Part shown: piece by piece, positions 5,150-34,317 of the stretch
Layout of the letters: each line of letters starts with the position of its first letter
Numbering within the stretch: the first letter of the stretch is position 1
Virus record (IMG/VR): IMGVR_UViG_3300012928_003423
Location: 6,932-70,931 of that record
DNA length: 64,000 nt
DNA from: a virus
Direction: 5' to 3' (one strand)
Program-made: the position numbers and the translations under genes
The notes under the pieces: model-generated
Databases searched by the model: none
Told to the model about the DNA's origin: nothing
Seen by the model: the letters and a program-made list of their open reading frames with translations, nothing else

Positions 5150-5407
5150 TTATTCTCCCTTTTCTTCTGTAAATCCTTCTACATTTTTACTTGAAATAAC
5201 CCCATTGGAAACTAAAGCCTCAAAGGTATTCCATAACTTTTCATATCTAACTTTATTTAATTCGATAATTCCAATAAGAATATTCATAATCTCGTCTTCT
5301 GATGGAACAACAGGAGAGTCTCCTATTCTATACAAAAGAACTTCTAATTCTTCGTTAGTTGTAAACACTTCGCTTATCGCTTCTTCTAAATCAAATCTAT
5401 CATTCAT
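5150..5407 (-). CDS. Hypothetical protein
   Basis: ORF track. Confidence 0.7.
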   Translation of the reverse strand: MNDRFDLEEAISEVFTTNEELEVLLYRIGDSPVVPSEDEIMNILIGIIELNKVRYEKLWNTFEALVSNGVISSKNVEGFTEEKGE

Positions 5408-5939
5408 GGTATCTGACTATATAGGTTTTTATAGGGCTGTCAATAAAAATATTATTTATCATTGCAAAAATTATTCCCCAATCTCCACCTGCAAGACCGC
5501 ATGATATACCCCAAGGTAATCCGAGAACAGGTGGGGGAGAAGGATCATATTCATGCTTGCTTACATTCATTTCAAAAAGATCATTTTCGACACCTTTCAA
5601 TGCTTGCCAAAATTTTTCGTAATCAACTTCTCTTTCTCTTCCAATACTCGCTTGAGTATACATATTATAAATCAAGCCATTATTAACTTGAGCTTTGGAA
5701 AACTTGCCTAACCAATGAACATATTGACCATTTTTATCGTACTCAGTATTAAAAGCCTTTGTATCTGCTTCGTATGCTTCGGGATAACGATCTTTTATTT
5801 GTTTTGCAATACCCGCTCCCATAATATTTCTAGTATTACAAGAGTGTGCAATAACATTAATATCATTCGGGAAGTCTAATAAGTTCCCATCTATTATCGT
5901 AATTGAGTTTGAATGTGCCTTGGTATCCTTCATTTCCAC
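5400..5939 (-). CDS. Macrodomain protein (ADP-ribose binding / glycohydrolase, TARG1/DarG-like)
   Basis: DGNLLD...VIAHSCNTRNIMGAGIAKQIKDRYP and LPWGISCGLAGGDW macrodomain motifs. Confidence 0.9.
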   Translation of the reverse strand: MEMKDTKAHSNSITIIDGNLLDFPNDINVIAHSCNTRNIMGAGIAKQIKDRYPEAYEADTKAFNTEYDKNGQYVHWLGKFSKAQVNNGLIYNMYTQASIGREREVDYEKFWQALKGVENDLFEMNVSKHEYDPSPPPVLGLPWGISCGLAGGDWGIIFAMINNIFIDSPIKTYIVRYHE

Positions 5940-6273
5940 CTATCTTCTCATAAGGTGAAAATAAAGTCAAGAAAAAAGTTTTATCTTTTTTTTGATAAAG
6001 GTAATATTCTTTGCCGATCACAGGTTTAAAGCGAAACTCCGCATTAAATATTATTTCATTCCATTTGTAGTCTTCAGCTAATTCCTCAAACTCTCTCTTT
6101 AACTTATTGAAGCGCTCTTGATAATGTTTATTTGCAGTATGAACTGCTCCTAACTTCCACCCACCAAGACTATGATCGGGTCGAATAACAGGAGCGCCTA
6201 CATTACTTGCATAGGGCAAAGAATGTGGGTTAGGCGCAACATTATCGGGCAAATCCTTTTCGCTCATTACCAA
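5863..6273 (-). CDS. DUF2452-like protein
   Basis: LPYASNVGAP...FNAEFRFKPVIGKEYYLY...FLTLFSPYE...GTFKLNYDNRW. Confidence 0.7.
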   Translation of the reverse strand: MVMSEKDLPDNVAPNPHSLPYASNVGAPVIRPDHSLGGWKLGAVHTANKHYQERFNKLKREFEELAEDYKWNEIIFNAEFRFKPVIGKEYYLYQKKDKTFFLTLFSPYEKIGGNEGYQGTFKLNYDNRWELIRLPE

Positions 6274-6458
6274 TTTTTAATTATATTCGCTATAATAAAT
6301 AAGCAAGTAACCATATTTAGAACGACTATAATAGTTCTAAGGATTAAACTAAATCTAGCTTCTTTTAGAGATAATATTGGTATATCGGGCTGATCCTCAT
6401 CTGTTTTACCAACTCGATGATCTAATGTTCTAGCCCATATCAACCAAAGTTTTTTCAT
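6267..6458 (-). CDS. Small membrane protein
   Basis: LWLIWARTL...C-terminal hydrophobic helix LRTIIVVLNMVTCLFIIANII. Confidence 0.7.
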   Translation of the reverse strand: MKKLWLIWARTLDHRVGKTDEDQPDIPILSLKEARFSLILRTIIVVLNMVTCLFIIANIIKNW

Positions 6459-6727
6459 GGATTATTGTACAAATATTCGCTTACTTGAGAAAGAATGAAT
6501 CTACCCTCTCTTGTGGAATGCAAACTTTCTGATGTATAATTAGTGCCTAATTCTTTATTTATTGTTTTGGTGATTTTTTCTAATGAAGACTTTTTTAATG
6601 ACTCTATTTCCTCCGCATCTATACCTGTTGCATCTGATATTTCTTCGGCACTCATTGCTGAGTAGTCTTCTTTTTCACGTTTAGAGGAGACTAATCCTCT
6701 TAGTCTTTTTTGTTGTTCTTTATTCAT
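6455..6727 (-). CDS. Small protein with a sigma-70 region-4-like HTH
   Basis: MSAEEISDATGIDAEEIESLKKSSLEKI resembles sigma region 4.2; start placed at ATG 6727, 7 nt after the -10 box. Confidence 0.5.
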   Translation of the reverse strand: MNKEQQKRLRGLVSSKREKEDYSAMSAEEISDATGIDAEEIESLKKSSLEKITKTINKELGTNYTSESLHSTREGRFILSQVSEYLYNNP

Positions 6728-6734
6728 GCAAAAA

Positions 6735-6763
6735 AACATAGCATGATATTCTGTTCATGTCAA
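6735..6763 (-). promoter_or_regulatory. sigma70-like promoter TTGACA-N17-TATGTT
   Basis: -35 at 6758-6763, -10 at 6735-6740. Confidence 0.7.
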
Positions 6764-7216
6764 GTCTCTTCTCTTTTTCACTATTTTATCATAATATTTT
6801 TTATCCCAAAAATTATAATAATTTGTTTTATGTAATTTGTCAGAATATTTATTTAATTCATTTAAAGGTTGAATAAGTAATATTGCATATTCTTTATTGT
6901 TAGTCTCTACCCCATTTATTTTATTTATTTGATTGGGATGATCCCATATTAACCAAAGATTTTTATGTGCTGAATATTCTTCATGTATATTGCAGAACCA
7001 CTCAAGCCAACTAACATCATATTTATGCTTGTCTCCATATATAAGATATAACATTGGATGCTCTTTATTATCCATACATTTTATTGCATCAACCCAAAAA
7101 TCCTCAGATTGTATTATTTGAATTTTATCTAAAAAACTTTTAGCAAATGGACAGATTGCATGACCGCCAAGCTCATCTCGCTTTAAAGAGATATAATCTA
7201 TATAATCGTTAATCAT
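6755..7216 (-). CDS. DUF1415-like protein
   Basis: GGHAICPFAK motif corresponds to the conserved LCPFA motif of DUF1415. Confidence 0.55.
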   Translation of the reverse strand: MINDYIDYISLKRDELGGHAICPFAKSFLDKIQIIQSEDFWVDAIKCMDNKEHPMLYLIYGDKHKYDVSWLEWFCNIHEEYSAHKNLWLIWDHPNQINKINGVETNNKEYAILLIQPLNELNKYSDKLHKTNYYNFWDKKYYDKIVKKRRDLT

Positions 7217-7965
7217 TTAAAAAAATGATGATCATCATATTTTTTTATTTTATCTAAATCTTTTGTCTTTTCTATTTTAGAATCTCTTTCGCAAAGCCAT
7301 TTATAATGATTGACATCATTAGACCAATTCTCTCCTGTCCAAAATTCAAAACCTTGGTAATCAGATTTATATATACAACATTTTTCATAACCTAAACCAA
7401 GATACATATAATCTTTGCCTTTAGATATACAATAATCTATTTCCGCTAAATTTGCATACTTGCCAAGGTATAGCTTCGGATTCTCATAATCCCATGCAAA
7501 TTGAGTAGAGAAAACGCTATTTGAACCAACATCTCTTAGGAATGTAAAAGCTATTGGCTTATCTTCTAAATAATATAACAAGAAAAACTTTCTATCAGCT
7601 TCAGTTTTTGTTAAAGGTTCTAAATCCCAATCTTTAAAACTTCTGTAAGAAATATATTTTTTAAATATATTTTTTAAAATATTATGATCTACATCTTTTG
7701 ATTTAAAATCTTTTACAACAATATTCTTGCATTTTTTTCTGCATTTTTTATTTTGCTTTGTGTCTGAAAAGTTATTTAAGTTTATCCTTGTTTGTCTAGC
7801 TTGATACCAATGCGACCTATCTCCTTTTAATAAATAGTCATCGGGCAACCATCCTTCTTTTAACGCAGTATCTTCTTCTTCAAGAGAAACTTCAGCCATA
7901 CAATCAAAGAATAAATAATCATACTCTGTTATAGCTCCCGAATAATGCTTAAAGTATATCCTCAT
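7213..7965 (-). CDS. Aminoacyl-tRNA-protein transferase, ATE1/Bpt family
   Basis: ALKEGW...WYQARQTRINL (ATE_N-like); LYYLEDKPIAF...SVFSTQFAWDY...YLGKYANLAEIDY...YMYLGLGYEKCCIYKSDYQGFE (ATE_C-like, conserved YK..Y..E). Confidence 0.75.
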   Translation of the reverse strand: MRIYFKHYSGAITEYDYLFFDCMAEVSLEEEDTALKEGWLPDDYLLKGDRSHWYQARQTRINLNNFSDTKQNKKCRKKCKNIVVKDFKSKDVDHNILKNIFKKYISYRSFKDWDLEPLTKTEADRKFFLLYYLEDKPIAFTFLRDVGSNSVFSTQFAWDYENPKLYLGKYANLAEIDYCISKGKDYMYLGLGYEKCCIYKSDYQGFEFWTGENWSNDVNHYKWLCERDSKIEKTKDLDKIKKYDDHHFFK

Positions 7966-8336
7966 TTATTGCTAAAATTTATATCATCAAAATTATCTCT
8001 ATCAATTATTTTATGCTTTAAGGATGTCGGGTTAAATTTATTTAATTCATTTATTACTAAATTTACATCATAATCTTTGCAACTATAAACATCTAATTGA
8101 ACTAAATTAGGGTCAGTCGTATCCCAAGAATGCAAGCATATATGGCTAGTAGTTATTAAACAGAATGCACTAATACCCTCATTACCCTTTTTGTCGCACA
8201 TAACTGCTCTTGGAGAATATAGTATTTCCATATCTATAATTCTAACTAAATTTTTAATCCATTCTTGAGTAAATATAGTTGACCTAAAAGGAGTTTTTTT
8301 AAAATTGCAACTTACTAATAAATGTTTATGATTCAC
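7962..8336 (-). CDS. speD: Pyruvoyl-dependent S-adenosylmethionine decarboxylase-family proenzyme (SpeD/SpeH-like)
   Basis: HKHLL N-terminus, GISAFCLITTSHICLHSW...LDVYSC; T-S-H self-cleavage site; GTG start. Confidence 0.85.
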   Translation of the reverse strand: MNHKHLLVSCNFKKTPFRSTIFTQEWIKNLVRIIDMEILYSPRAVMCDKKGNEGISAFCLITTSHICLHSWDTTDPNLVQLDVYSCKDYDVNLVINELNKFNPTSLKHKIIDRDNFDDINFSNK

Positions 8337-8356
8337 TAATAATAATTACACTAAAA

Positions 8357-8442
8357 TGGTGCGGATGGTGGGAATTGAACCCACACGCCCTATGGGCAAC
8401 AGATTTTAAGTCTGTAGCGTCTACCGATTCCGCCACATCCGC
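8357..8442 (-). tRNA. tRNA-Leu(UAA)
   Basis: GCGGATGTGGCGGAATCGGTAGACGC...ACAGA-CTTAAAA-TCTGT...long variable arm...GTTCAATTCCCACCATCCGCACCA; encoded CCA. Confidence 0.95.
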
Positions 8443-8443
8443 A

Positions 8444-8520
8444 TGGCACGAGAGGTGAGACTTGAACTCACGACATTCTGCTTAGAAGGCAGATGCTCTA
8501 TCCAACTGAGCTACTCTCGC
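8444..8520 (-). tRNA. tRNA-Arg(UCU)
   Basis: GCGAGAGTAGCTCAGTTGGATAGAGC-TCTGC-CTTCTAA-GCAGA...GTTCAAGTCTCACCTCTCGTGCCA; encoded CCA. Confidence 0.95.
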
Positions 8521-8528
8521 ATAAAGTG

Positions 8529-8601
8529 AGCCACTTGTCAGACTCGAACTGACGACATCCTCATTACAAGTGAGACGCTCTACCAACTGAGCTAAAGTGG
8601 C
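8529..8601 (-). tRNA. tRNA-Thr(UGU), CCA not encoded
   Basis: GCCACTTTAGCTCAGTTGGTAGAGC...CTCA-CTTGTAA-TGAG...GTTCGAGTCTGACAAGTGGCT followed by CAC. Confidence 0.93.
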
Positions 8602-8602
8602 A

Positions 8603-9664
8603 TTAAAAAAAATCATTTAACAATTTTCTAATTGCTTTATCTTTGGCTTTTACTTCGCACTCCCACTTAGCTTCTTTACTTGGTTCTATAGCTATAGTAG
8701 GTGGAAAATTTCTATAACTAAAATAATCGCCATGTGCGCGAGGATTTTTAGTTCCATCATTCTTCCCTTCAGACCAATGAAAAACAGGAGCAATAAAATT
8801 AGACTCATCTAATAAGGTTGAGTCTTGATTCACCCATGTATATGCACAACGTTCAGCTTGCCAACTGATGTTTATAACTTCAGAAGGGTTACATATGTCG
8901 TGCAAATTGTCATAGCAAACAGGTAGATTGAATTTATATTTATTAAAGATGTAATCTGAGAATTTTAAAATATTATCTACATTCCATTGTCCTTTATCTT
9001 CGTTTTCTATGGTAAGACGATTATACACACCCGAATCACATCTCATTAAGTTATTATAAAATCTGTCTGCAATTTCAGACATTAGAAAGTTTTCTCTGAT
9101 TTCGGGATCAACATTTAAAGATGAAAGTGATTTACTTGGACTTGGGAAAGAACAATTAATATGAATGTTCATTGGGCAAGAATGATCTTGAGGTAATCCC
9201 ATGTAGTCAAGTATCATTGACTGAAAGTTTAATTCTTTTATTGTTTGATTAACTGAATCTTCTTTTAAAGATGCAAGAACATTGAATTGATCGGGATGAA
9301 TGCTAGTAGACATCCCATAACTCATGAATAAAATACCAATCATTCTAAGCTCTTCAATCATCTTTCTTTCATTCGGCAATGAATTAAAATTGAGTCCCAA
9401 AATTGGGTCAGTAACGAGAGGGAAAAGAGCGGAACTAATCCTATAGTGCTTAATATTATTGTCGCCACAATGCCTAATAATATGCTGAGTGACAATAAGA
9501 TTATGATTAATACGAATACACAATTCTTTAATAGCTTCATCTCTACCTAACCTTTCTGATAAATCAAGAAATCTTTTTCTTGTCATAGTGCGAAAAGAAT
9601 AAACTTTTTTATCTTTTTCTTTCAACTCTTCGCTTATGCAAGTTAAACCTAATGTTGTTTCCAT
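8603..9664 (-). CDS. uvsE: UV damage endonuclease (UVDE)
   Basis: YRISSALFPL, SIHPDQFNVLAS, TIENEDK, YDNLHD, PVFHWSEG, RAHGDY, ECEVKAKDKA motifs. Confidence 0.92.
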   Translation of the reverse strand: METTLGLTCISEELKEKDKKVYSFRTMTRKRFLDLSERLGRDEAIKELCIRINHNLIVTQHIIRHCGDNNIKHYRISSALFPLVTDPILGLNFNSLPNERKMIEELRMIGILFMSYGMSTSIHPDQFNVLASLKEDSVNQTIKELNFQSMILDYMGLPQDHSCPMNIHINCSFPSPSKSLSSLNVDPEIRENFLMSEIADRFYNNLMRCDSGVYNRLTIENEDKGQWNVDNILKFSDYIFNKYKFNLPVCYDNLHDICNPSEVINISWQAERCAYTWVNQDSTLLDESNFIAPVFHWSEGKNDGTKNPRAHGDYFSYRNFPPTIAIEPSKEAKWECEVKAKDKAIRKLLNDFF

Positions 9665-9671
9665 GCCTCAT

Positions 9672-9700
9672 AACATGGCATAAAAAAGATTTTAAGTCAA
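9672..9700 (-). promoter_or_regulatory. sigma70-like promoter TTGACT-N17-CATGTT
   Basis: -35 at 9695-9700, -10 at 9672-9677, uvsE ATG 7 nt downstream. Confidence 0.6.
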
Positions 9701-10269
9701 GCTTTTTTTTTGTCTCTATGATTTAATATAGATTTACACAATTCATAAAGCTCGTCTAAACTTAAATCATTTTTTGCATAATTTGCTTCTTTTAAACAAA
9801 TTCCTAAATTAGACAGGTCATTAGTTCCACCTCTTGAAGTAGGAATAATATGATCAAAGTGATATGTTTCGGGCTTATTTAGGTCTATAGGAGTGCCTGT
9901 TAGGTAGCAAACTGGATTGTCTCCAAATTTATCTAAAACATCTTGAGTTGTGAAATTTTCAGATAGATTATTTACTATTGTATGAGTTCTACTTTTAGGG
10001 TTTCTTCTTTTAAATGTTTTTAATTTGCCTCTAAAAATCTTTCTAGATATTCTACATTTGAACGCGCTTACTTTTCTTGATAGCTTATGTTGCGTCGATT
10101 GATTTCTTTTTTTAACTCTTTGTTTCTCTGTCTTGCCTTCTCCGCAATGATATGATATAACAGATTTAGAACAACCTAATATATCTTTTATTTCATTATA
10201 TGTCTTACCTAATTCTCTTAGCCTAAGAATTTCTTCTTTTCTTCTTGTATTGTTCCTTTTCCTCTTCAA
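9697..10269 (-). CDS. HNH endonuclease with N-terminal HTH (free-standing homing-endonuclease-like)
   Basis: EILRLRELGKTYNEIKDILGCSKSVISYH (HTH); CYLTG...HFDHIIPTSRGGTNDLSNLGICLKEANYAK (HNH). Confidence 0.85.
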   Translation of the reverse strand: MKRKRNNTRRKEEILRLRELGKTYNEIKDILGCSKSVISYHCGEGKTEKQRVKKRNQSTQHKLSRKVSAFKCRISRKIFRGKLKTFKRRNPKSRTHTIVNNLSENFTTQDVLDKFGDNPVCYLTGTPIDLNKPETYHFDHIIPTSRGGTNDLSNLGICLKEANYAKNDLSLDELYELCKSILNHRDKKKA

Positions 10270-10633: not shown

Positions 10634-11111
10634 TTTTTACACCTATTGTTATGGGCTTGACTCCATTTAAAAATCTACCTTGATTATCTCTAGCTTGAGA
10701 AAATAATCCATTGTTATCTTTTTTTACCATTCTCATTTTTAAATTTTTATTCCAAGGGGTAAATCCTTTTTTAAATGTTCCATTTAAGTTTCTAAACTTA
10801 AATGGCTGTTTCTTGAACCAAGCATCTTTCTTTAATCTTAAAAGTTTATGTCTAGTATTCGGATAAGATATTGACTTTAAAGTCTCCCATTCTTTATCAG
10901 ATAAACTTTTACCTTTATACTTTTTCCTGTTTATTTTGATAACTCTTATGTTATTTATAGTAAAGCCTTTTAAATCTTTCTTTATTTTTTTTTGGAATAA
11001 TACTCTAGCTTCCTCTTTATTTTCCGTAGATATAATAGATTTATAAAACCTTTCTTTCTCTATAATTACACTAAAATAAACTACAAAAAGATATTTTTCT
11101 GTATAGTCCAT
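10569..11111 (-). CDS. Novel N-terminal domain (paralog of 18463 and 19540 genes) fused to a NUMOD3-like motif
   Basis: N-half aligns by eye with 18463..18882 (W..l+...fPN....L motif); FKKGFTPWNKNLK is a NUMOD3-type motif. Confidence 0.65.
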   Translation of the reverse strand: MDYTEKYLFVVYFSVIIEKERFYKSIISTENKEEARVLFQKKIKKDLKGFTINNIRVIKINRKKYKGKSLSDKEWETLKSISYPNTRHKLLRLKKDAWFKKQPFKFRNLNGTFKKGFTPWNKNLKMRMVKKDNNGLFSQARDNQGRFLNGVKPITIGVKNEKLKNPTPKQNAEINIKQNL

Positions 11112-11144
11112 AATATTATGTAATTAGTTAGAGCAAAAAAAACA

Positions 11145-11176
11145 AGAAAAAAAACCCCCCTCTTTCGAGGGGGGTT
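11145..11176 (-). terminator. Intrinsic terminator (10-bp stem, GAAA loop, U-tract)
   Basis: Minus strand reads AACCCCCCTC-GAAA-GAGGGGGGTT-TTTTTT, just downstream of 11201..11461. Confidence 0.9.
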
Positions 11177-11200
11177 AGCAAATCGTGCTAGATCAAGAAG

Positions 11201-11461
11201 TTACTTCTTGTTGTTAGCACAATTAGTATCTCCTGTCTGCTTGGATAAAACCGAAACAAGCAAAACCAAGGTGACGATACCTGCAAGGCTAGCGCCTGGA
11301 CCGACAAATCCATTAACAATACCTTGAAGGTTGCCAATGACATCGATACCTGCCTCTGCCCCAAATACTACTTGGGATAGTACCAAGAGTCCAATTACGG
11401 ACAATAGTACGGCGCTAATGCCACAAACGGCACACTTTATTTTGTTTACTACTTCGTTCAT
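11201..11461 (-). CDS. Small two-TM membrane protein
   Basis: Hydrophobic helices ISAVLLSVIGLLVLSQVVFG and LAGIVTLVLLVSVL; followed by a terminator. Confidence 0.8.
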   Translation of the reverse strand: MNEVVNKIKCAVCGISAVLLSVIGLLVLSQVVFGAEAGIDVIGNLQGIVNGFVGPGASLAGIVTLVLLVSVLSKQTGDTNCANNKK

Positions 11462-26059: not shown

Positions 26060-26866
26060 TTATTCGGGTCTTTTACCTAATAGATTGCCTTCTTGGTCTA
26101 TATGTCCTTCTCTGATTTTTGTAGCAGAAACTTCTTGAAGCTCTTTGCTCAATTCTAATTGCTCGATGTTGTAACCAACCCCTCTTCCATAGAATACATC
26201 CGTAATATTTGGAAGTTCTACTACTTTTATTTTATTTCCAAACTCTATACATGCAGAGTGTATTTCTTTTTTTACCCTTTCAAAATCATAAGGGTTACTG
26301 TCGTCTGTTCCGCCAACATCTCTTAACGCTATGCAACATTGACCAGTTCTTTTTATAGCTTCAGCAACAAGGTTCTTGTGTCCGATATGAAATGGCTGAT
26401 ATCTTCCTATCAATAAGGCGGTTGGAGCTTGATTGTCCCAAGCTTCTGTTCGGTTTAATTTTTCAAGAACCATTTGGCACCATTCGTCTGGAGTGCCTTC
26501 ATTTAATTCTATATCGTGATTATCTGGCTTTTCAAAAAGCTTATTTGTGTCTGCAAATCTACCTTTTTCAATCCTATTAACCCATATTATAAAGTCTGGA
26601 TTAAAAGCTTCTCGCGTTTCTTTCGTAGGACAAATAAAATCTGCAATTACATAGCATCCTCCCATTTTACTCCAATCGCAAAGTTTACCCATTCTTGTGG
26701 CATGCTTTAATCTATCTTGAGGCTCGAAACCTAATTCAGAATAAATATCCTGTCTTACTGCATCAGCATTAAACCAAGCGGCGTTAAGCTTTGGCACTAA
26801 TTTTTCAGCCAAAGTCGTTTTTCCAGAGCCAGGAAGGCCCATGATTAATATTTTTCTTTTTAACAT
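26060..26866 (-). CDS. Adenylylsulfate-kinase-like P-loop kinase fused to a HIGH-motif nucleotidyltransferase
   Basis: GLPGSGKTT, NADAVR, VIADFICPT (APS-kinase-like); IGRYQPFHIGH, DSNPY, VSATKIR (cytidylyltransferase-like). Confidence 0.85.
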   Translation of the reverse strand: MLKRKILIMGLPGSGKTTLAEKLVPKLNAAWFNADAVRQDIYSELGFEPQDRLKHATRMGKLCDWSKMGGCYVIADFICPTKETREAFNPDFIIWVNRIEKGRFADTNKLFEKPDNHDIELNEGTPDEWCQMVLEKLNRTEAWDNQAPTALLIGRYQPFHIGHKNLVAEAIKRTGQCCIALRDVGGTDDSNPYDFERVKKEIHSACIEFGNKIKVVELPNITDVFYGRGVGYNIEQLELSKELQEVSATKIREGHIDQEGNLLGKRPE

Positions 26867-27699: not shown

Positions 27700-28853
27700 T
27701 ATTTTTTTGACTCGTATATTGTTAAGAAATCAGAGTCTTCCCAAAAATCAGATGTATCTATAAAAGTTTGAAGATCAGAGGATGTTTCTTGATTTGTTAT
27801 CCAGTGAGCTTTTGATGCATAAGTTTTACCTTTAGATATTAGAATTTTGGATGACTTCACACCAAGACTGTAATCAGATTTAACAGAAAAATCAATAGGT
27901 TTTTTCTTTTTTTCATAAAACTCTATTGTTTCATCTATATTTTTGAGCCTAATTTCATTTAAGCCTTCTTTTATAGTGGTGAATAATTCGTAATGTATTC
28001 CAAATTTTTTTAAATTTTTTAAAAAGACTGCATCAAGCCCACCATCACAATTTACCGAAATTCTTTGTATTCTTGACCTGATTGACAAAAGTAAATTTTC
28101 AGAAAGAGGTTTATCTGTAATAATACCCATTTGCCTGTTTTGAGAAAATGCAAAAAGTAAATTTTCATCTAAAAAATAATCCGCCCTAACATTAATTAAT
28201 GAATTTGTCATTAAATCAGCGGGAGGCATAAAGTCAGGAATAATTTCTATTGTTTTTATATGCGACATATCGCCATTAAAAACCCTTTTTAAAGAAGATA
28301 AATTATTATTTATACCTAGGCTATTTAAAATAGCTGAAGCGATTTGATTAGGAGATATATTATCTATAGTCTTGGGTGATTCAGCTTTTGCAAAAGTTCT
28401 ATTTTTTCCATCTTGAGGAGCATCTATAAAAAAATCTTTAGCCCCTTTCTTGAAAGGAAAAAAATCAGAAGGAGAGCTTGAGAATATGCACACTAAAGGA
28501 ATATTTAACTGGTTCGCAACTAATGAAAGGCAACTATTTGCATTAAAATGAAGCATGGATTTGCTTATTATATAAGCATTTTGACCAAAAGTCTTATCGG
28601 TGTATTGATAAATGCCATCTATCTGCTTCTTATTATGGCTTCCTATTCTTAGTATTTTTATACCCTCTGCTTCTAAAAAAGGAGATATGAAGTCAATAAC
28701 ATCTTGCCAAAATTTATAATCTTTAGATTGCTCTTTTGAGAAGAACTCGAAAGTTATATATTTATCAAAAGGTATTGGAAAAAAACAAAGATTTATAGGA
28801 GGCTTTGAAGTTTTTAAAGCTGAGTGTAGGCTTATTTTTTCAAGCTTATTCAT
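27699..28853 (-). CDS. GT9 (heptosyltransferase-like) C-terminal half plus unknown domain
   Basis: SKDYKFWQDVI, IKILRIG, TFGQNAYIISKSMLHFNANSCLSLVANQLNIPLVCIF (degenerate DSG..H.A motif). Confidence 0.6.
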   Translation of the reverse strand: MNKLEKISLHSALKTSKPPINLCFFPIPFDKYITFEFFSKEQSKDYKFWQDVIDFISPFLEAEGIKILRIGSHNKKQIDGIYQYTDKTFGQNAYIISKSMLHFNANSCLSLVANQLNIPLVCIFSSSPSDFFPFKKGAKDFFIDAPQDGKNRTFAKAESPKTIDNISPNQIASAILNSLGINNNLSSLKRVFNGDMSHIKTIEIIPDFMPPADLMTNSLINVRADYFLDENLLFAFSQNRQMGIITDKPLSENLLLSIRSRIQRISVNCDGGLDAVFLKNLKKFGIHYELFTTIKEGLNEIRLKNIDETIEFYEKKKKPIDFSVKSDYSLGVKSSKILISKGKTYASKAHWITNQETSSDLQTFIDTSDFWEDSDFLTIYESKK

Positions 28854-30759
28854 GTGTTTTAAATGTCTTGTTATTTATAGAAATATAATTATTCACATCC
28901 TTCAAAACAGAATTAAAATTATAGCAATAATCAAAATATTTTTCACCTTCTTTTAATCCTGCACCTATCATGGCTCTTTCATTTTCTAGTTCGTCTTGAT
29001 AGGGAATACATTTAAATATATAAGGGTTGCATTGCACCATGGAAAAAAAAGAGGGATCTGTGGCGAAAAATATATCACAATCTTTATTTTTATCTTTAAA
29101 AGATTTTAGAACACTAGAAACAAGCAGAACGTCTTCTTCAGAAGTATTTACAGAAAATAGAGCTTTTTTGTTGCCTGAATTGTTTAACAATTTATTAAAG
29201 TCAACTGTCTTTTGTGTGTTAATGTTATTATTTTCTTGAACGGCAACTGATCTAAAATAATCTATTATTGATTGTCTAGTTGCTCCATTTTTTAACGAAG
29301 CCATCCAATGCTTGTGACCTTCATCGTTGTGATCTAAATCAACCTTTAAAATATTTTTATAAAGATCCACTAACCATTCAGAATCATCATCTATTTGAGG
29401 AGGATTGTAATTGGGGTCTCTTTTTTCAGGTTCAAATGAAAAGTTATAATCATGATCGGGCATTGCATCAATAATATTTTCAATCTTTTTTCCTATAACT
29501 TCTATTGAGTAGTTTTCTAATACAAATTTCCTAGCTTTTTTTCCTAGGCTAGATCTTTTTAACAAATCCATTTTAAAAACTTTTTCTAAATTTTTAGATA
29601 TGTCAATTGGGCATGTACTAGCTTTTATGAATTGAGTTCCTGGCTCTCTGTATTCGTTCCACTTTAATGGAAATCCACCACTATCTTCAGTACACATATC
29701 CTCTCCGCAAGAATAATTAGTAACTAATGTTACTAGTTCGCATAACTTAGCTTCTTGAATGGGTATTTCTTGACCTCCAGAAGTAAATGCATGACAATAA
29801 ACATCCATCAAATTGTAAACTTCATTTAATTGATGTTCGTTTACCCCACTAGCTATACTTACAGTATTTTGGCTTTCTTTAGTTCCGCAATAATTGCAAT
29901 TTAACTTCTGACCTTGAAATGGCTTCACTTCATACCTTTTGCAGGCTGAGCAATAATAAGTGCATAAAATATCATTAATATCAAGCCCTTTTTCTTCTAC
30001 TAATGCTGGTATATTCCAGCCTTCAGCAAAATTTGTATGAAGTAACAATTTAGCTTTAGATTTAGGGTTTTTTTCTTTAAATATTTTAAAGCCTTCTATT
30101 AAATTAGGAACTGTTTTTCTTAATTGATTTCTAAAAACATAACCTATGATAAAGGCATCTTGATCTATAGAAAAAGACCTTCTTAACTCTGACCTTCCTT
30201 CTGAGCCTACATTTTTAAAATTAGCACAATCTACCGCTCCATGAAGAGTTTTTACATGATTGTGACCTAATTTATGCATAGCTTTTTCCGCAAAAGATGC
30301 CCAAACATAATAATTTTTTATTTTTGGAGCCACTTTTACGGCATCGGGTAAAAGTGGAAGACTATCTAAAGTAGTCCAAATCATACAGTTTATTTTATTC
30401 CACCAAGTTTTTTTGGTAAAAGGAGATAGTCCCCATATATCCTCGACACCCATGTATATGTCTGGCTTTTCTTCTTTTATAATGTCGTCTATCCCAAGCA
30501 TGCCGTATTGAGCCTGCCTAGATAAATTTGGGTCTTTATTTATTTTGTCAATAACTGACTGATCTGCAGGTATGCCCCCTACACATTTCCAAGGCAATTT
30601 TGTTAGATCTTCATGGCCCTTTGATACTCCATTGGATAACTCAACTACCTCATATTTTCCTGTAGAAACAAGGTACTTTATTACATTTTTAGCATTTTTC
30701 CCAAAACCAGTTAGTATTTTTGAGAAATTGCTATGGTAAAGTATTTTCTTTTTTCGCAC
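28846..30759 (-). CDS. GT4 glycosyltransferase with Cys4 insert, DUF4214-like domain and GT9 N-terminal domain
   Basis: TGFGKNA, RNQLRK, YNLMDVYCHAFTSGGQEIPIQEAKLC (GT4); CSAC...CNYC; LYKNILKVDLDHNDEGHKHWMASLKNGATRQSIIDYF (DUF4214-like); EDVLLVSSVLKSFK...DIFFAT...QCNPYI (GT9-N). Confidence 0.85.
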   Translation of the reverse strand: MRKKKILYHSNFSKILTGFGKNAKNVIKYLVSTGKYEVVELSNGVSKGHEDLTKLPWKCVGGIPADQSVIDKINKDPNLSRQAQYGMLGIDDIIKEEKPDIYMGVEDIWGLSPFTKKTWWNKINCMIWTTLDSLPLLPDAVKVAPKIKNYYVWASFAEKAMHKLGHNHVKTLHGAVDCANFKNVGSEGRSELRRSFSIDQDAFIIGYVFRNQLRKTVPNLIEGFKIFKEKNPKSKAKLLLHTNFAEGWNIPALVEEKGLDINDILCTYYCSACKRYEVKPFQGQKLNCNYCGTKESQNTVSIASGVNEHQLNEVYNLMDVYCHAFTSGGQEIPIQEAKLCELVTLVTNYSCGEDMCTEDSGGFPLKWNEYREPGTQFIKASTCPIDISKNLEKVFKMDLLKRSSLGKKARKFVLENYSIEVIGKKIENIIDAMPDHDYNFSFEPEKRDPNYNPPQIDDDSEWLVDLYKNILKVDLDHNDEGHKHWMASLKNGATRQSIIDYFRSVAVQENNNINTQKTVDFNKLLNNSGNKKALFSVNTSEEDVLLVSSVLKSFKDKNKDCDIFFATDPSFFSMVQCNPYIFKCIPYQDELENERAMIGAGLKEGEKYFDYCYNFNSVLKDVNNYISINNKTFKTHE

Positions 30760-31361: not shown

Positions 31362-31886
31362 TTATAGTTGAATTAAAATGTTGACTATTTTTTGCTCATA
31401 TTCTCTAGCTAAGATAGCTAAAGCTTCTTGATCTTCAGGGTTAATTTCGCTTTGTTTTTGATCAAACTCCTGATGTAGCTCTCTAGCTCCAGGAAAGAAA
31501 CATTTTTCATTTCGAAAGAATTTTTCGATCTGAATTTTAGAATCTTCATCTAGTAAATTTGATGATGCTAAAAGGTTATTTTTTTGTATATAATCTTCGG
31601 CATCTTCTCTTGAATTAAATACATGTTCTTCGGGAACAGGGGCTCCTTCAATATTTGGAGCCATACCAATATGAATAATTTTATTTGTTTGATCTTGCGT
31701 GATGCAAACAATTCTCAAATCATCCATTAAGGAAGGTTTATTTTTTTTGCTCTTTAAAAAGCTTTCTAAAGATTTTAAATCGTCAAAGATATGCCAATTT
31801 CTAGGCATATAGTCTTCTCCAATCTCGTTAAATTCCATTACATGCTCTCCAGCAACACAAATTTGATATTTTTTTGTTTTAGTCAT
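31362..31886 (-). CDS. Hypothetical protein
   Basis: ORF track. Confidence 0.7.
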   Translation of the reverse strand: MTKTKKYQICVAGEHVMEFNEIGEDYMPRNWHIFDDLKSLESFLKSKKNKPSLMDDLRIVCITQDQTNKIIHIGMAPNIEGAPVPEEHVFNSREDAEDYIQKNNLLASSNLLDEDSKIQIEKFFRNEKCFFPGARELHQEFDQKQSEINPEDQEALAILAREYEQKIVNILIQL

Positions 31887-34317
31887 TCAGCTCTTCTTCT
31901 ATGATTTTTTTGTTAATTTTTAAAGGTCCAGTTTGACCATTTATAATCCATTTTGAAGCTATATTTTCTATATTTTTTTGAATAATTCTTTTAACTGGTC
32001 TAGCTCCTAGATTTTTACTATAAGCTTCTTCTGTTAAAAAATCAAGGCATTCTTCATCTATGGAAAGGTTGATGCTATGATCTTTCTTTAATTTGGATTT
32101 TAATATATTTATCTCTTTCTTAAGGAAGCATTTAATATCACCAAGTTCAAAGTCATTAAACACTATTATTTCATCAAGCCTATTTATTAATTCTGGGCTA
32201 AGAAATTTCTGAGCTTCTTTTTTAACGTCTAGTTTTAATTGTTTGTTAGATGGATTAGAGGCAAATCCTACAGAATTTGTTTTAGCAAGTAAATTGGCTC
32301 CAATGTTTCCTGTAAGCATCACTATGCAGTTTGAAAAATCAGAAACACGACCAAAGTTATCTGTTAATCTACCTTCTTCGAGCAATTGAAGTAAAATATT
32401 TAATACTTCTGGGTGAGCTTTTTCTATTTCATCAAACAAAAGAACTGAGTAAGGTTTTGCTTTAATTTTATCAGTAAGTTGACCTCCATCTTCATACCCA
32501 ACATATCCAGGCGATGAACCTATTAACCTTGATATGTTTATTTTTTCGGAATATTCGGACATATCCACATGAATTAAATTGTCTGCACTTCCAAAAACTG
32601 TGTCAGCTATGGTTTTAGCCATAAAAGTTTTTCCTACCCCTGTTTTGCCCAACATTAAAAATGAACCGATTGGTTTTGAGCTTGAGTCTAAACCGCTTTT
32701 GGAGCGAATAATACAGTCTGAGATAGTTTTGCAAGCCTGTTTTTGTCCAAAAATAATTTTGTTTAAATTTTTATTTAAATTTAAAAGTAAGTTAGATTCT
32801 TTTTCCGTTAAATTACCTACAGGAATGCCAGTTCTCGAAGAGATTACTTCATAGATATCTTCTCTGGTTACAAAAAACTTTTTTCTTTCATACGATTCCG
32901 CCCAAGAGTCTAAAACTTTTTTATATTCAGCGATAAGTTTATCTTGTTTCATTGATATTCTTTTTAATTCTAAATCGCTATCTACATTAGACTCTTTTTC
33001 CATATATTGTTCTATATCTTTTTCTAGTTTTAAAGCTTTTGGAGGTTTATGTAAATTTTTCATTTTTACTTTAGCCCCAGCTTGGTCTATAACATCAATT
33101 GCTTTGTCTGGCAACTGCCTGTCTGGTATGTACCTTACAGACAAATCTACCGCTAATTTTAATGCATTTTTGCGATATATAACATGGTGAAATTGTTCAT
33201 ATTGTTGAGATATGCCATTTATTATTTTATAAGCTTCGGTAGGAGTAGGTTGAATTATATCTATCTGCTCAAATCTTCTTTCTAATGCAGGATCTTTAGT
33301 TATAAATTTTTTATATTCTTTAGGGGTTGTAGCTCCTATGCATTTTATTTTATTTCTAGCGAGAGCTGGTTTTAATATGTTGGCAGCATCCATACTGCCT
33401 TCTGCCGCACCAGCACCTATTATCGTATGTATTTCATCTACAAACAAAATGATATTAGAAGAATTAGAGACTTCTTGAATTAAATTTTTAAGCCTCTCCT
33501 CAAATTGACCCCTGTATTTTGTTCCAGCTATCATTGCAGCCATATCTAATTCATAAATGATTTTATTAGACAAAAAACTTGCACAAGTTCCATTAACTAT
33601 AGACTGAGCCAAACCCTCCACTAAGCTAGTTTTACCTGTTCCTGGTAATCCAACTAATATAGGGTTGTTTTTATTTCTTCTACAAAGTATTTCAGATATT
33701 TTTTCAATTTGTTTTTCTTTGCATATAACCTCGTCAAAAGTACCTTTTAAAGCTAATAAATTATAATTTTTTGCATACTGATCTAATATGCTGTTTGCTG
33801 AATTTTCCTGAATGGAGGGAGGAGAAATATCTTTATTTTTTCTAACCTTTGTCCTGTCCCATTCCCCTGTTTTGAAAAACTTTTTTAATTTTTTTTCCGA
33901 CTTAGATAAATCAATATGAAATGTTTTAAAAAGATCTTTAAGGGGTGAGTCAGGATAAACTATTAAAATATAAAAAAGATGCTCAACACCTATGTAATTA
34001 TGATTTAAGTCATCAGATAAACTTTTAGCTCTTTTAAATACATTTTTAAAATCGACAGAATACTTTGGATTTTCTATATCGACTTCTGGGGTTTCGCTAA
34101 AAAAATTGCCATCAATAGTATTGAAAACAAAAGTTTTAAAATCTTCCATAGATATATTTAAGTCCTCAAAAAAGTTAATTACTGTAGATTGTCCGCAATC
34201 TAATATAGCAAAAAGAAGATGATTAAGATCAATGGTGTCGCATCTAAGGTTAATGGATGTTTCTCTCGAAATTCCAATTATTTTTTGAACTCTTGGTGTT
34301 AAGTTGTACTTTTGCAT
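31879..34317 (-). CDS. clpC: ATP-dependent Clp protease ATP-binding subunit, ClpC/ClpA-like
   Basis: Clp_N repeats (YIGVEHL), AAA1 GLPGTGKT/FVDEIH, short coiled-coil middle domain, AAA2 GKTGVGKT/FDEIEKAHP, GYVGY pore loop, VGF ClpP-docking tripeptide. Confidence 0.93.
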   Translation of the reverse strand: MQKYNLTPRVQKIIGISRETSINLRCDTIDLNHLLFAILDCGQSTVINFFEDLNISMEDFKTFVFNTIDGNFFSETPEVDIENPKYSVDFKNVFKRAKSLSDDLNHNYIGVEHLFYILIVYPDSPLKDLFKTFHIDLSKSEKKLKKFFKTGEWDRTKVRKNKDISPPSIQENSANSILDQYAKNYNLLALKGTFDEVICKEKQIEKISEILCRRNKNNPILVGLPGTGKTSLVEGLAQSIVNGTCASFLSNKIIYELDMAAMIAGTKYRGQFEERLKNLIQEVSNSSNIILFVDEIHTIIGAGAAEGSMDAANILKPALARNKIKCIGATTPKEYKKFITKDPALERRFEQIDIIQPTPTEAYKIINGISQQYEQFHHVIYRKNALKLAVDLSVRYIPDRQLPDKAIDVIDQAGAKVKMKNLHKPPKALKLEKDIEQYMEKESNVDSDLELKRISMKQDKLIAEYKKVLDSWAESYERKKFFVTREDIYEVISSRTGIPVGNLTEKESNLLLNLNKNLNKIIFGQKQACKTISDCIIRSKSGLDSSSKPIGSFLMLGKTGVGKTFMAKTIADTVFGSADNLIHVDMSEYSEKINISRLIGSSPGYVGYEDGGQLTDKIKAKPYSVLLFDEIEKAHPEVLNILLQLLEEGRLTDNFGRVSDFSNCIVMLTGNIGANLLAKTNSVGFASNPSNKQLKLDVKKEAQKFLSPELINRLDEIIVFNDFELGDIKCFLKKEINILKSKLKKDHSINLSIDEECLDFLTEEAYSKNLGARPVKRIIQKNIENIASKWIINGQTGPLKINKKIIEEELND

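Follow-up and report, generated by a model that had tools for sequence, protein, structure and literature searches.

A phage-specific Bpt/ATE1-type homologue encoded between a SpeD-like decarboxylase and a putative haem-thiolate oxygenase

Why would a marine phage encode an enzyme of the aminoacyl-tRNA-protein transferase type, and what would that enzyme modify? The question is raised by a 64 kb stretch (hereafter the window) of a 73.4 kb IMG/VR virus record (IMGVR_UViG_3300012928_003423; ~54% complete, 31% G+C), which carries phage replication genes (DnaE-type polymerase, DnaB and RNR) and in which a gene for a protein resembling Bpt and ATE1 (which we refer to as the ATE-like protein) lies between the genes of a SpeD-like pyruvoyl decarboxylase and of a 153-residue protein (p153), close to three tRNA genes. 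To our knowledge, Bpt/ATE enzymes are known solely as N-degron writers acting on cellular proteins, and the initial annotation of this locus proposed that the phage encodes such a writer together with its donor tRNAs. We find that the ATE-like protein is a genuine full-length Bpt/ATE1-type homologue belonging to a phage-specific offshoot, and that the tRNA genes adjoin it incidentally without being part of the cassette. In our preferred reading, which we hold with some reserve, the protein would be a transferase that depends on tRNA and probably moves arginine, with an acceptor outside the canonical ones that is plausibly an amine, and it would work in a three-enzyme cassette.

The locus comprises the following genes, given in minus-strand order:

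8528-8601, minus strand, tRNA-Thr (UGU; tgt), found by ARAGORN
8444-8520, minus strand, tRNA-Arg (UCU; tct), found by ARAGORN
8357-8442, minus strand, tRNA-Leu (UAA; taa), found by ARAGORN
7962-8336, minus strand, SpeD-like pyruvoyl decarboxylase of 'type A', 124 amino acids, Pfam AdoMet_dc
7213-7965, minus strand, ATE-like protein, 250 amino acids, Pfam ATE_C
6755-7216, minus strand, p153, 153 amino acids, phrog_10325 (E 2e-20), DUF1415/DUF6875-type fold

This arrangement of three tRNA genes and three open reading frames (ORFs) on one strand is the one originally described: the SpeD-like/ATE-like and ATE-like/p153 junctions each consist of a 4-nt overlap (ATGA), the gap from tRNA-Leu to the GTG start of the SpeD-like ORF is 20 nt, and no terminator-like sites were found between p153 and the UvdE gene that flanks the tRNAs. 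A 2249-nt contig from the probable source run covers positions 6258-8506 with zero differences, so the arrangement is real and no assembly artefact, and identical fragments of the stretch are present in a second study; no RNA run was found to contain it. A low-depth contig that joins 7141 to 8613, bypassing the ATE-like gene, the SpeD-like gene and the tRNAs, extends for 22 nt on one side of the joint; this joint is unreliable, being probably spurious or derived from a related phage.

A full-length member of the Bpt/ATE1 family

Pfam ATE_C (PF04377) matches residues 109-208 of the ATE-like protein at 36.7 bits (cut-off 25, E 7.4e-9), which bears out the assignment to the ATE family made in the initial annotation, and the C-terminal motif cited for it there is indeed seen (Y188-L-G ... 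Y199-K200 .. Y203 ... E207). The NCBIfam Bpt models align to residues 55-214, the best of them (NF002346) at 43.8 bits, under its cut-off of 170. We built a family alignment of 86 full-length relatives and compared it with three canonical Bpt genes from bacterial genomes. ATE_C is matched by 66/86 family members, PF13480 by 17 and Acetyltransf_1 by 3. The ATE_N hidden Markov model (HMM; PF04376) found no match in the window protein or in any of the 86 relatives at E <= 0.01, the same model scoring canonical Bpt at 69-74 bits, so that of the HMM check put forward with the original assignment, the ATE_C half stands and the ATE_N half does not.

The N-terminal region is homologous though the ATE_N model is silent, because both profile-profile and fold comparison align it. 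The family profile matches canonical Bpt in hhalign with 97.2% probability (E 4.8e-11, family columns 30-205), and an AlphaFold2 (AF2) model of the ATE-like protein made from the family alignment (predicted local distance difference test score, pLDDT, 95.7; predicted template-modelling score, pTM, 0.91) finds bacterial Bpt as all of its top 30 Swiss-Prot fold matches, over the full length and at template-modelling (TM) scores of 0.63-0.71. The best PDB match is ATE1 (Foldseek E 3.6e-10); in VIA comparisons, human ATE1 is matched at Z 17.2 (225 aligned residues, root-mean-square deviation 4.4) and KlAte1 at Z 15.6-15.8, over ~225 residues between model positions 1 and 250. ATE1 and Bpt alone cover the whole protein, the other tRNA-dependent GNATs (A-PGS/MprF, FemX, Aat and Sba18/Sbb17) aligning to the GNAT core only (~residues 24-213 of the model); among these, Sba18/Sbb17, which are tRNA-dependent GNAT peptide synthases with small-molecule amine acceptors, reach Z 12.6. 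The comparison of structure with ATE1 and Bpt, suggested as a check at the outset, thus places the phage protein in this family over its full length.

Donor-side residues are kept and acceptor-side residues lost

Residue roles known for KlAte1 (PMC9351520) were transferred to the ATE-like protein via HMMER and hhalign alignments. The equivalent of the catalytic Lys (klAte1 K304, FemX K305) is K200, a Lys in 85/86 members, and the basic helix, which in ATE1 binds tRNA (PMC9351520), is kept at K70-K80, with positions 73, 74, 77 and 78 mostly Lys or Arg across the 86 members. W158 and Y199 are conserved across the family, and R57, R60 (which corresponds to Bpt R67), G211 and W214 are invariant. 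In the side-chain pocket, ATE1 S255/S273/E277/Y289 is represented by S153/A171/E175/M187 in the window protein and by T/S-A-E-Y in the largest clade of the family (clade 2, below). E175 aligns with ATE1 E277/D277, and 63/86 representatives and all 88 marine loci that we inspected carry Glu here; the canonical Bpt comparison sequences have Leu at this position, and the Bpt analysed in PMC9351520 has Gln. Since the family keeps Glu where ATE1 holds the arginine side chain, the donor is probably Arg-tRNA, and the ATE-like protein resembles, at the level of sequence, a working aminoacyl-tRNA transferase that would prefer a basic donor such as Arg.

The acceptor motif GW(R/K)(R/K) (klAte1 GWRRSG, including R80; Bpt GWRKFG) reads G38-W-L40-P41 in the window protein, position 40 being Leu/Ile in 62/86 members and position 41 Pro in 46/86. 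R80 of klAte1 is essential and reads the acidic Asp/Glu N-termini (PMC9351520). The Cys4 metal site (klAte1 C23, C26, C95 and C96; Bpt CxxCxxC) is likewise missing: Bpt C57/C60/C63 align with R50/W53/A56 and no Cys is conserved in the N-region of the family, in agreement with the original remark that a canonical metal motif was not evident. Because both the zinc/Cys motif and the acid-reading Arg are lost, the acceptor is unlikely to be a classical Asp/Glu N-terminus. This sizeable, apparently phage-only branch of the Bpt/ATE family has kept the tRNA-donor machinery and lost the acceptor determinants.

The cassette across related phages

An exhaustive profile-free search placed the ATE-like family in at least 259 clusters at 50% identity, and all inspected contexts are phage contigs, many of them from marine metagenomes. 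A tblastn search of the ATE-like protein and of a short form of it (from clade 3, below) against 50,697 GenBank phage records gave no match, scanning 185,579 species genomes for a sequence pattern brought up no relative either, and the literature searched on phage arginyltransferase, Bpt or ATE_C contained nothing relevant. To describe the neighbourhoods, we clustered the ORFs within 3.5 kb of the ATE-like gene and ran tblastn and ARAGORN over 85 loci.

Clade 1 contains the window's large DnaE-type phages, and here the order SpeD-like, ATE-like, p153 is found in 16/16 close relatives, which share 62-76% identity and lie on contigs of up to 217 kb. Genes are inserted between the ATE-like gene and p153 in three of these loci: a classical GNAT acetyltransferase in L002 and L003 (both at 10777-11214), which is RimI-like with weak spermidine acetyltransferase matches, and a DUF2452 gene in L015. 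Five clade-1 loci carry a second, canonical SpeD (AESH...HTW) two or three genes downstream of p153, which gives these phages two SpeD paralogues, one of each type. The canonical copies are:

L008:11458-11859, canonical SpeD
L009:11638-12039, canonical SpeD
L010:4236-4637, canonical SpeD
L011:11638-12039, canonical SpeD
L012:11277-11678, canonical SpeD

Clade 2 comprises 57 loci of small marine phages with a terminase and SU10 portal, in which a gene that we call c1 overlaps the start of the ATE-like gene. Clade 3 is T4-like and lies beside gp25/gp6; a truncated, 149-aa ATE-like protein, c1, p153 and, in four loci, SpeD are encoded by genes that all overlap, and Met replaces the catalytic Lys in the short ATE-like form. 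We count this clade for the cassette: the truncated ATE-like gene, c1, p153 and SpeD share an overlapping operon in an unrelated T4-like lineage. Other distant family members lie in recombination or early regions with no metabolic neighbours.

The c1 protein (212-221 aa; phrog_3704, labelled 'ferredoxin') has no Pfam match and does not occur in the window or the clade-1 genomes; clades 2 and 3 (L004-L075, e.g. L037:9366-10004, and L077-L085, e.g. L082:3835-4500) show translational coupling of its gene with that of the ATE-like protein. Its profile shows no similarity to ATE-like, p153, SpeD or Bpt, and its atlas fold leads are beta-trefoil-like and weak; c1 may be a partner or a substrate. At the other end of the gene, distant ATE-like genes share their 3' end with a conserved, overlapping ORF of 63 aa (L091:5734-5925, L093:3198-3389, L094:987-1178) in phages that have no SpeD or p153, and many clade-2 loci have a 46-aa ORF in this position.

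The decarboxylase and p153

Pfam AdoMet_dc (PF02675) matches the SpeD-like protein at 42.9 bits (cut-off 25), in keeping with its first description as a pyruvoyl decarboxylase, and the S-adenosylmethionine decarboxylase (AdoMetDC) equivalog TIGR03330 scores 32.9 bits, under its cut-off of 75.65. S64, H65, H69 and C86, the pyruvoyl-forming Ser and the catalytic His/Cys, are invariant in 22 sequences; the presumed cleavage site is T-S-H, the residue before the Ser being Thr. The motifs TTSH...HSWDxxDP are those of the arginine decarboxylase (ADC) of phage HTVC201P, unlike the canonical type-B copies (AESH...HTWPE). The nearest cultured proteins are pelagiphage SpeD homologues (33-46% identity), and the alignment to HTVC201P AXH71538 is gap-free at 36% identity, with shared insertions. 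AXH71538 is an arginine decarboxylase and not an AdoMetDC (PMC9992855; PMC10407285), and the window protein probably decarboxylates arginine or ornithine and not S-adenosylmethionine. Complex prediction for the ATE-like and SpeD-like proteins gave a median of 0.02 with one run at 0.42, a result that counts neither for nor against binding.

The third ORF was first called 'DUF1415-like', a name that holds at the level of fold and is without HMM support. The AF2 model of p153 (pLDDT 90.8) matches ESM Atlas clusters carrying DUF1415/DUF6875 at TM 0.81-0.83 (feature matches 0.91-0.93) and AlphaFold Database clusters at E 3e-4 to 4e-3. Foldseek against the PDB gave nothing below E 0.1, and p153 was matched by no Pfam HMM and, in a profile search, by no PDB sequence; one of 27 relatives matches DUF1415 at E 0.27. 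In an exhaustive VIA comparison with the PDB, p153 is matched by AglA (9ub3_A) at Z 7.1 over 137/153 residues, the next match being at Z 4.4. AglA uses a thiolate-haem (Cys44) to N-hydroxylate the arginyl conjugate AMPn-Arg (PMC12866846). DUF6875 corresponds to 'cytochrome P422', thiolate-haem hydroxylases of sandwich fold with the haem motif RxGxVCP (bioRxiv 10.64898/2025.12.11.692455), and both P422 and AglA hydroxylate amino-acid substrates (bioRxiv 10.64898/2025.12.11.692455; PMC12866846). In p153, C22, P23, D92 and H93 are invariant, the Cys lying in an invariant (I/V)21-C22-P23, and R13 and G17 are nearly so, with a spacing that differs from that of the P422 motif. The model gives p153 an alpha/beta sandwich of the DUF1415/DUF6875 (cytochrome P422) type, and the protein is a probable thiolate-haem oxygenase.

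A natural fusion of a SpeD-like protein to p153 (P0401, 265 aa) occurs on two contigs (L179:4934-5731 and L180:3235-4032), its SpeD-like domain sharing 45% and its p153-like domain 31% identity with the window proteins; no ATE-like gene lies in its vicinity. As the two are naturally fused, the SpeD-like protein and p153 probably act together, and in clade 1 the ATE-like gene is wedged directly between their genes. The SpeD part of P0401 is of type A, and its neighbours are radical SAM, fatty-acid desaturase and 2-oxoglutarate (2OG)-Fe(II) oxygenase genes. Another protein, P0394 (186 aa), combines a p153-like N-terminal part (60% identity) with an Fe-S biosynthesis HesB/IscA domain (PF01521) and is either a real fusion or a gene-calling artefact.

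A proposed aminoacylation step and its alternatives

In the reading that we prefer, the SpeD-like enzyme would convert an amino acid to an amine such as agmatine or putrescine, and the ATE-like protein would transfer an aminoacyl group from a charged tRNA, probably Arg-tRNA, via Lys200 to a primary amine, the acceptor being this amine or a related amino-acid-derived compound. As a small P422/YqcI-like haem-thiolate oxygenase, p153 might then oxidise the aminoacylated product. The initial annotation had offered a non-protein acceptor as its fallback, which the gene context favours. Taken to its full extent, the scheme is a self-contained viral tRNA-dependent pathway: formation of an agmatine/putrescine-type amine, arginylation by a Bpt/ATE fold, and P422/YqcI-like N-hydroxylation or another oxidation. 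As a whole we consider this pathway rather unlikely.

Several points weigh against an amine-modifying cassette. Gene overlap is common in phage accessory islands regardless of function. Clade 2, the largest clade, and other family members have no SpeD or p153 nearby, and because most members have neither, the core function of the family would be independent of both. The clade-3 association may be a relic, since the ATE-like protein is truncated there and its catalytic Lys has become Met, and cultured cyanophages that have no ATE-like gene do have homologues of p153. For the SpeD-like protein, the T-S cleavage site is presumed from sequence, the role given to E175 comes from an alignment and not from a complex, the match between the p153 model and AglA is modest, and no HMM ties p153 to DUF1415, DUF6875 or YqcI. 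All characterised Bpt/ATE enzymes, lastly, modify proteins (PMC9351520).

This last point speaks directly for the first alternative, an aminoacyl-tRNA-protein transferase with a changed protein acceptor, which would place Arg or another residue on non-acidic N-termini or another protein amine and so alter the stability or activity of phage or host proteins, the SpeD-like protein and p153 being unrelated cargo. The full-length ATE1/Bpt fold, including the N-domain that shapes the peptide pocket, fits such an enzyme, as do the absence of SpeD and p153 neighbours from most family members and the clade-2 pocket (T/S-A-E-Y), which resembles that of ATE1 (S-S-E-Y). However, R80 and the Zn-Cys4 scaffold, by which ATE1 holds the peptide N-terminus, are gone, and the strict coupling of the gene between those of two small-molecule enzymes, which are themselves fused elsewhere, would have to be coincidence. 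We regard a protein acceptor as somewhat unlikely.

A second alternative is that aminoacyl-tRNA use has been lost, the ATE-like protein being either a GNAT that uses acyl-CoA, such as a polyamine acyltransferase, or a binding protein without catalytic activity. Its GNAT core also matches acetyltransferases, polyamine acetyltransferases among them, at Z 11-12, a classical GNAT acetyltransferase is inserted directly after the ATE-like gene in L002 and L003, and phage spermidine N-acetyltransferases exist (PMC9992855). Yet the best matches (ATE1, Bpt, A-PGS/MprF and FemX) are all tRNA-dependent, the family conserves both the basic helix typical of GNATs that use tRNA and the catalytic Lys of FemX/ATE1 (PMC9351520), and the ratio of ATE_C to Acetyltransf_1 matches among the 86 members (66 to 3) points the same way, which makes a loss of tRNA use quite improbable.

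The tRNA genes and the N-degron proposal

The initial annotation had coupled the enzyme to the adjacent tRNAs: as a phage N-degron writer, it would transfer Leu or Arg, supplied by these tRNAs, to N-terminal Asp/Glu for degradation by ClpS-ClpAP. The homology to Bpt/ATE is real, and the tRNA genes do precede the cassette by 20 nt, on its strand and without an intervening terminator, but the coupling does not extend to relatives. No tRNA adjoins the cassette in any of the 16 close relatives, the window genome being the only one among 17, and ARAGORN found no tRNA in the flanks of ~70 more distant loci. In L007, 7.5 kb separate the ATE-like gene from a cluster of tRNAs located after UvdE, and in L002 and L003 a single tRNA-Thr lies at a distance of 4 kb. 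Two CheckV-complete relatives, G001 (203 kb, reached through L008), with a tmRNA and no tRNA gene, and G003 (138 kb), with tRNA-Cys only, have no tRNA-Arg or tRNA-Leu, yet keep the SpeD-like, ATE-like and p153 genes. The codon usage of the window (AGA 68% of Arg, TTA 54% of Leu and ACA 42% of Thr codons) shows that the three tRNAs decode the commonest Arg, Leu and Thr codons of the phage, and they are thus explained as codon-supply tRNAs. Neither adjacency to nor co-occurrence with tRNA-Leu or tRNA-Arg is therefore conserved, a lack of conserved adjacency being what the initial annotation had itself named as refuting its proposal, and the striking adjacency turns out to be incidental.

The degradation side of the proposal has a possible agent in a ClpC-like unfoldase encoded elsewhere in the window:

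31879-34317, minus strand, ClpC-like double AAA+ unfoldase, 812 amino acids, Pfam Clp_N, AAA, AAA_2 and ClpB_D2-small

This protein is 37-44% identical to ClpC of Actinomycetota, Bacillota and Cyanobacteria. Its gene is present in 3/5 large relatives that keep the cassette and missing from 2/5, with no ClpP or ClpS beside it. ClpS was found neither in the 73-kb record nor in five relatives (>=90% complete in four cases), six related records in all; ClpP, searched for in the window's record only, was not found there. A tmRNA, present in one relative, could likewise be set on the side of proteolysis. The equivalent of R80, the Arg that binds acidic residues, is replaced by Leu-Pro family-wide. 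An N-degron writer with dedicated tRNAs is largely refuted by comparative genomics, and we consider it very unlikely.

The tmRNA just mentioned lies in G001 at C1:66699-67062, with the tag GNKNRVKAFGLKAKKLALAA, ~6 kb from the ClpC-like gene of that genome; the window has no tmRNA.

An effect on the tRNA pool itself, by which the protein would deacylate or divert host Arg-tRNA for host takeover or anti-defence whatever the acceptor, fits the best-conserved donor-side residues and the placing of family members in early or recombination regions of unrelated phages without metabolic neighbours, but the invariance of R57, R60, G211 and W214 and the conservation of the N-domain would be expected of an enzyme with a defined second substrate, we know of no precedent in this fold, and such an effect is highly improbable.

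Flanking genes and host

The cassette is flanked in the window by:

8603-9664, minus strand, UvdE UV-endonuclease
9697-10269, minus strand, HNH endonuclease
5400-5939, minus strand, macro-domain/phosphatase-like protein
5863-6273, minus strand, DUF2452 protein

UvdE, the macro-domain protein and the DUF2452 protein accompany the cassette in relatives, in varying order. Pointers to the host disagree: the SpeD-like protein points to pelagiphages and the DnaE polymerase to Bacteroidota phages, and one p153 homologue carries the label of a Crocinitomicaceae metagenome-assembled genome (MAG). Elsewhere, the window encodes an APS-kinase/cytidylyltransferase-like protein (26060-26866, minus strand) and a large glycosyltransferase (28846-30759, minus strand), and relatives encode sulfotransferases and a family-25 glycosyltransferase (L002:1198-3205), which with the window genes may form a glycan or sulfation module.

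Significance and comparison with known systems

If the ATE-like protein arginylates proteins, phages would own a post-translational tagging chemistry. If it arginylates an amine, the chemistry of the family would extend to small molecules and phages would gain a tRNA-dependent step in polyamine-type metabolism, joining the recently recognised phage SpeD-derived decarboxylases to the new P422 haem enzymes. It would then be the first Bpt/ATE-family enzyme with a non-protein acceptor and part of the first virus-encoded, natural-product-like pathway that consumes aminoacyl-tRNA, which might yield a modified polyamine or antimetabolite used during infection. The three proteins are small and soluble, making the question directly testable either way.

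With Bpt and ATE1, the ATE-like protein shares the two-domain architecture, the length (Bpt is ~240 aa), the ATE_C GNAT core, the catalytic Lys, the YK...E...G..W C-terminal motif, the basic helix before the GNAT core and Arg60/R67, and with ATE1 also the Glu at the side-chain pocket position. It differs from them in that ATE_N goes unrecognised by HMM, the metal Cys residues are all replaced, the acceptor motif is GWLP and the scores lie far under the equivalog cut-offs; moreover, the family is found only in phage contigs, and its gene context is metabolic, not proteolytic. FemX, MprF/A-PGS, Aat and Sba18/Sbb17 have in common with it the GNAT core, the catalytic Lys and (predicted for the phage protein) tRNA dependence, and their acceptors are peptidoglycan precursors, lipids and small amines.

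The pelagiphage SpeD-derived ADC (AXH71538) and SpeDA/SpeDC share the type-A insertions and the Ser, His and Cys with the SpeD-like protein. The residue before the cleavage site is Glu in those enzymes and Thr in the window protein, and the pelagiphage gene lies among replication genes with no ATE-like or p153 partner, unlike that of the window. P422 and DUF1415 proteins resemble p153 in the predicted sandwich, the four-stranded sheet and the (I/V)-C-P that follows a conserved Arg and Gly, whereas p153 is shorter (150 aa against 180-300 aa), matches no Pfam HMM and spaces its motif differently.

The closest parallel to the proposed cassette is the biosynthesis of argolaphos in Streptomyces monomycini, where AglC arginylates a small primary amine from Arg-tRNA to make AMPn-Arg and AglA then hydroxylates the arginyl guanidine (PMC12866846). 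The cluster table in PMC8976061, as we read it, lists two GNATs of ~340-356 aa (AlpF, PF13480; AlpO, COG3146), one of which would be AglC; if so, AglC is not of Bpt type. PF13480, the family of AlpF, is the one matched by 17/86 ATE-like members. AglA and p153 have the structural match (Z 7.1) and an N-terminal Cys in common, which is invariant in p153. No YqcI/YcgG HMM matches p153, and AglA is twice its size. A pyruvoyl decarboxylase would provide the amine in the phage cassette, as against a phosphonate pathway in argolaphos, but the logic of AglC and AglA is the one proposed here: a GNAT-type transferase using Arg-tRNA, followed by a small thiolate-haem sandwich enzyme.

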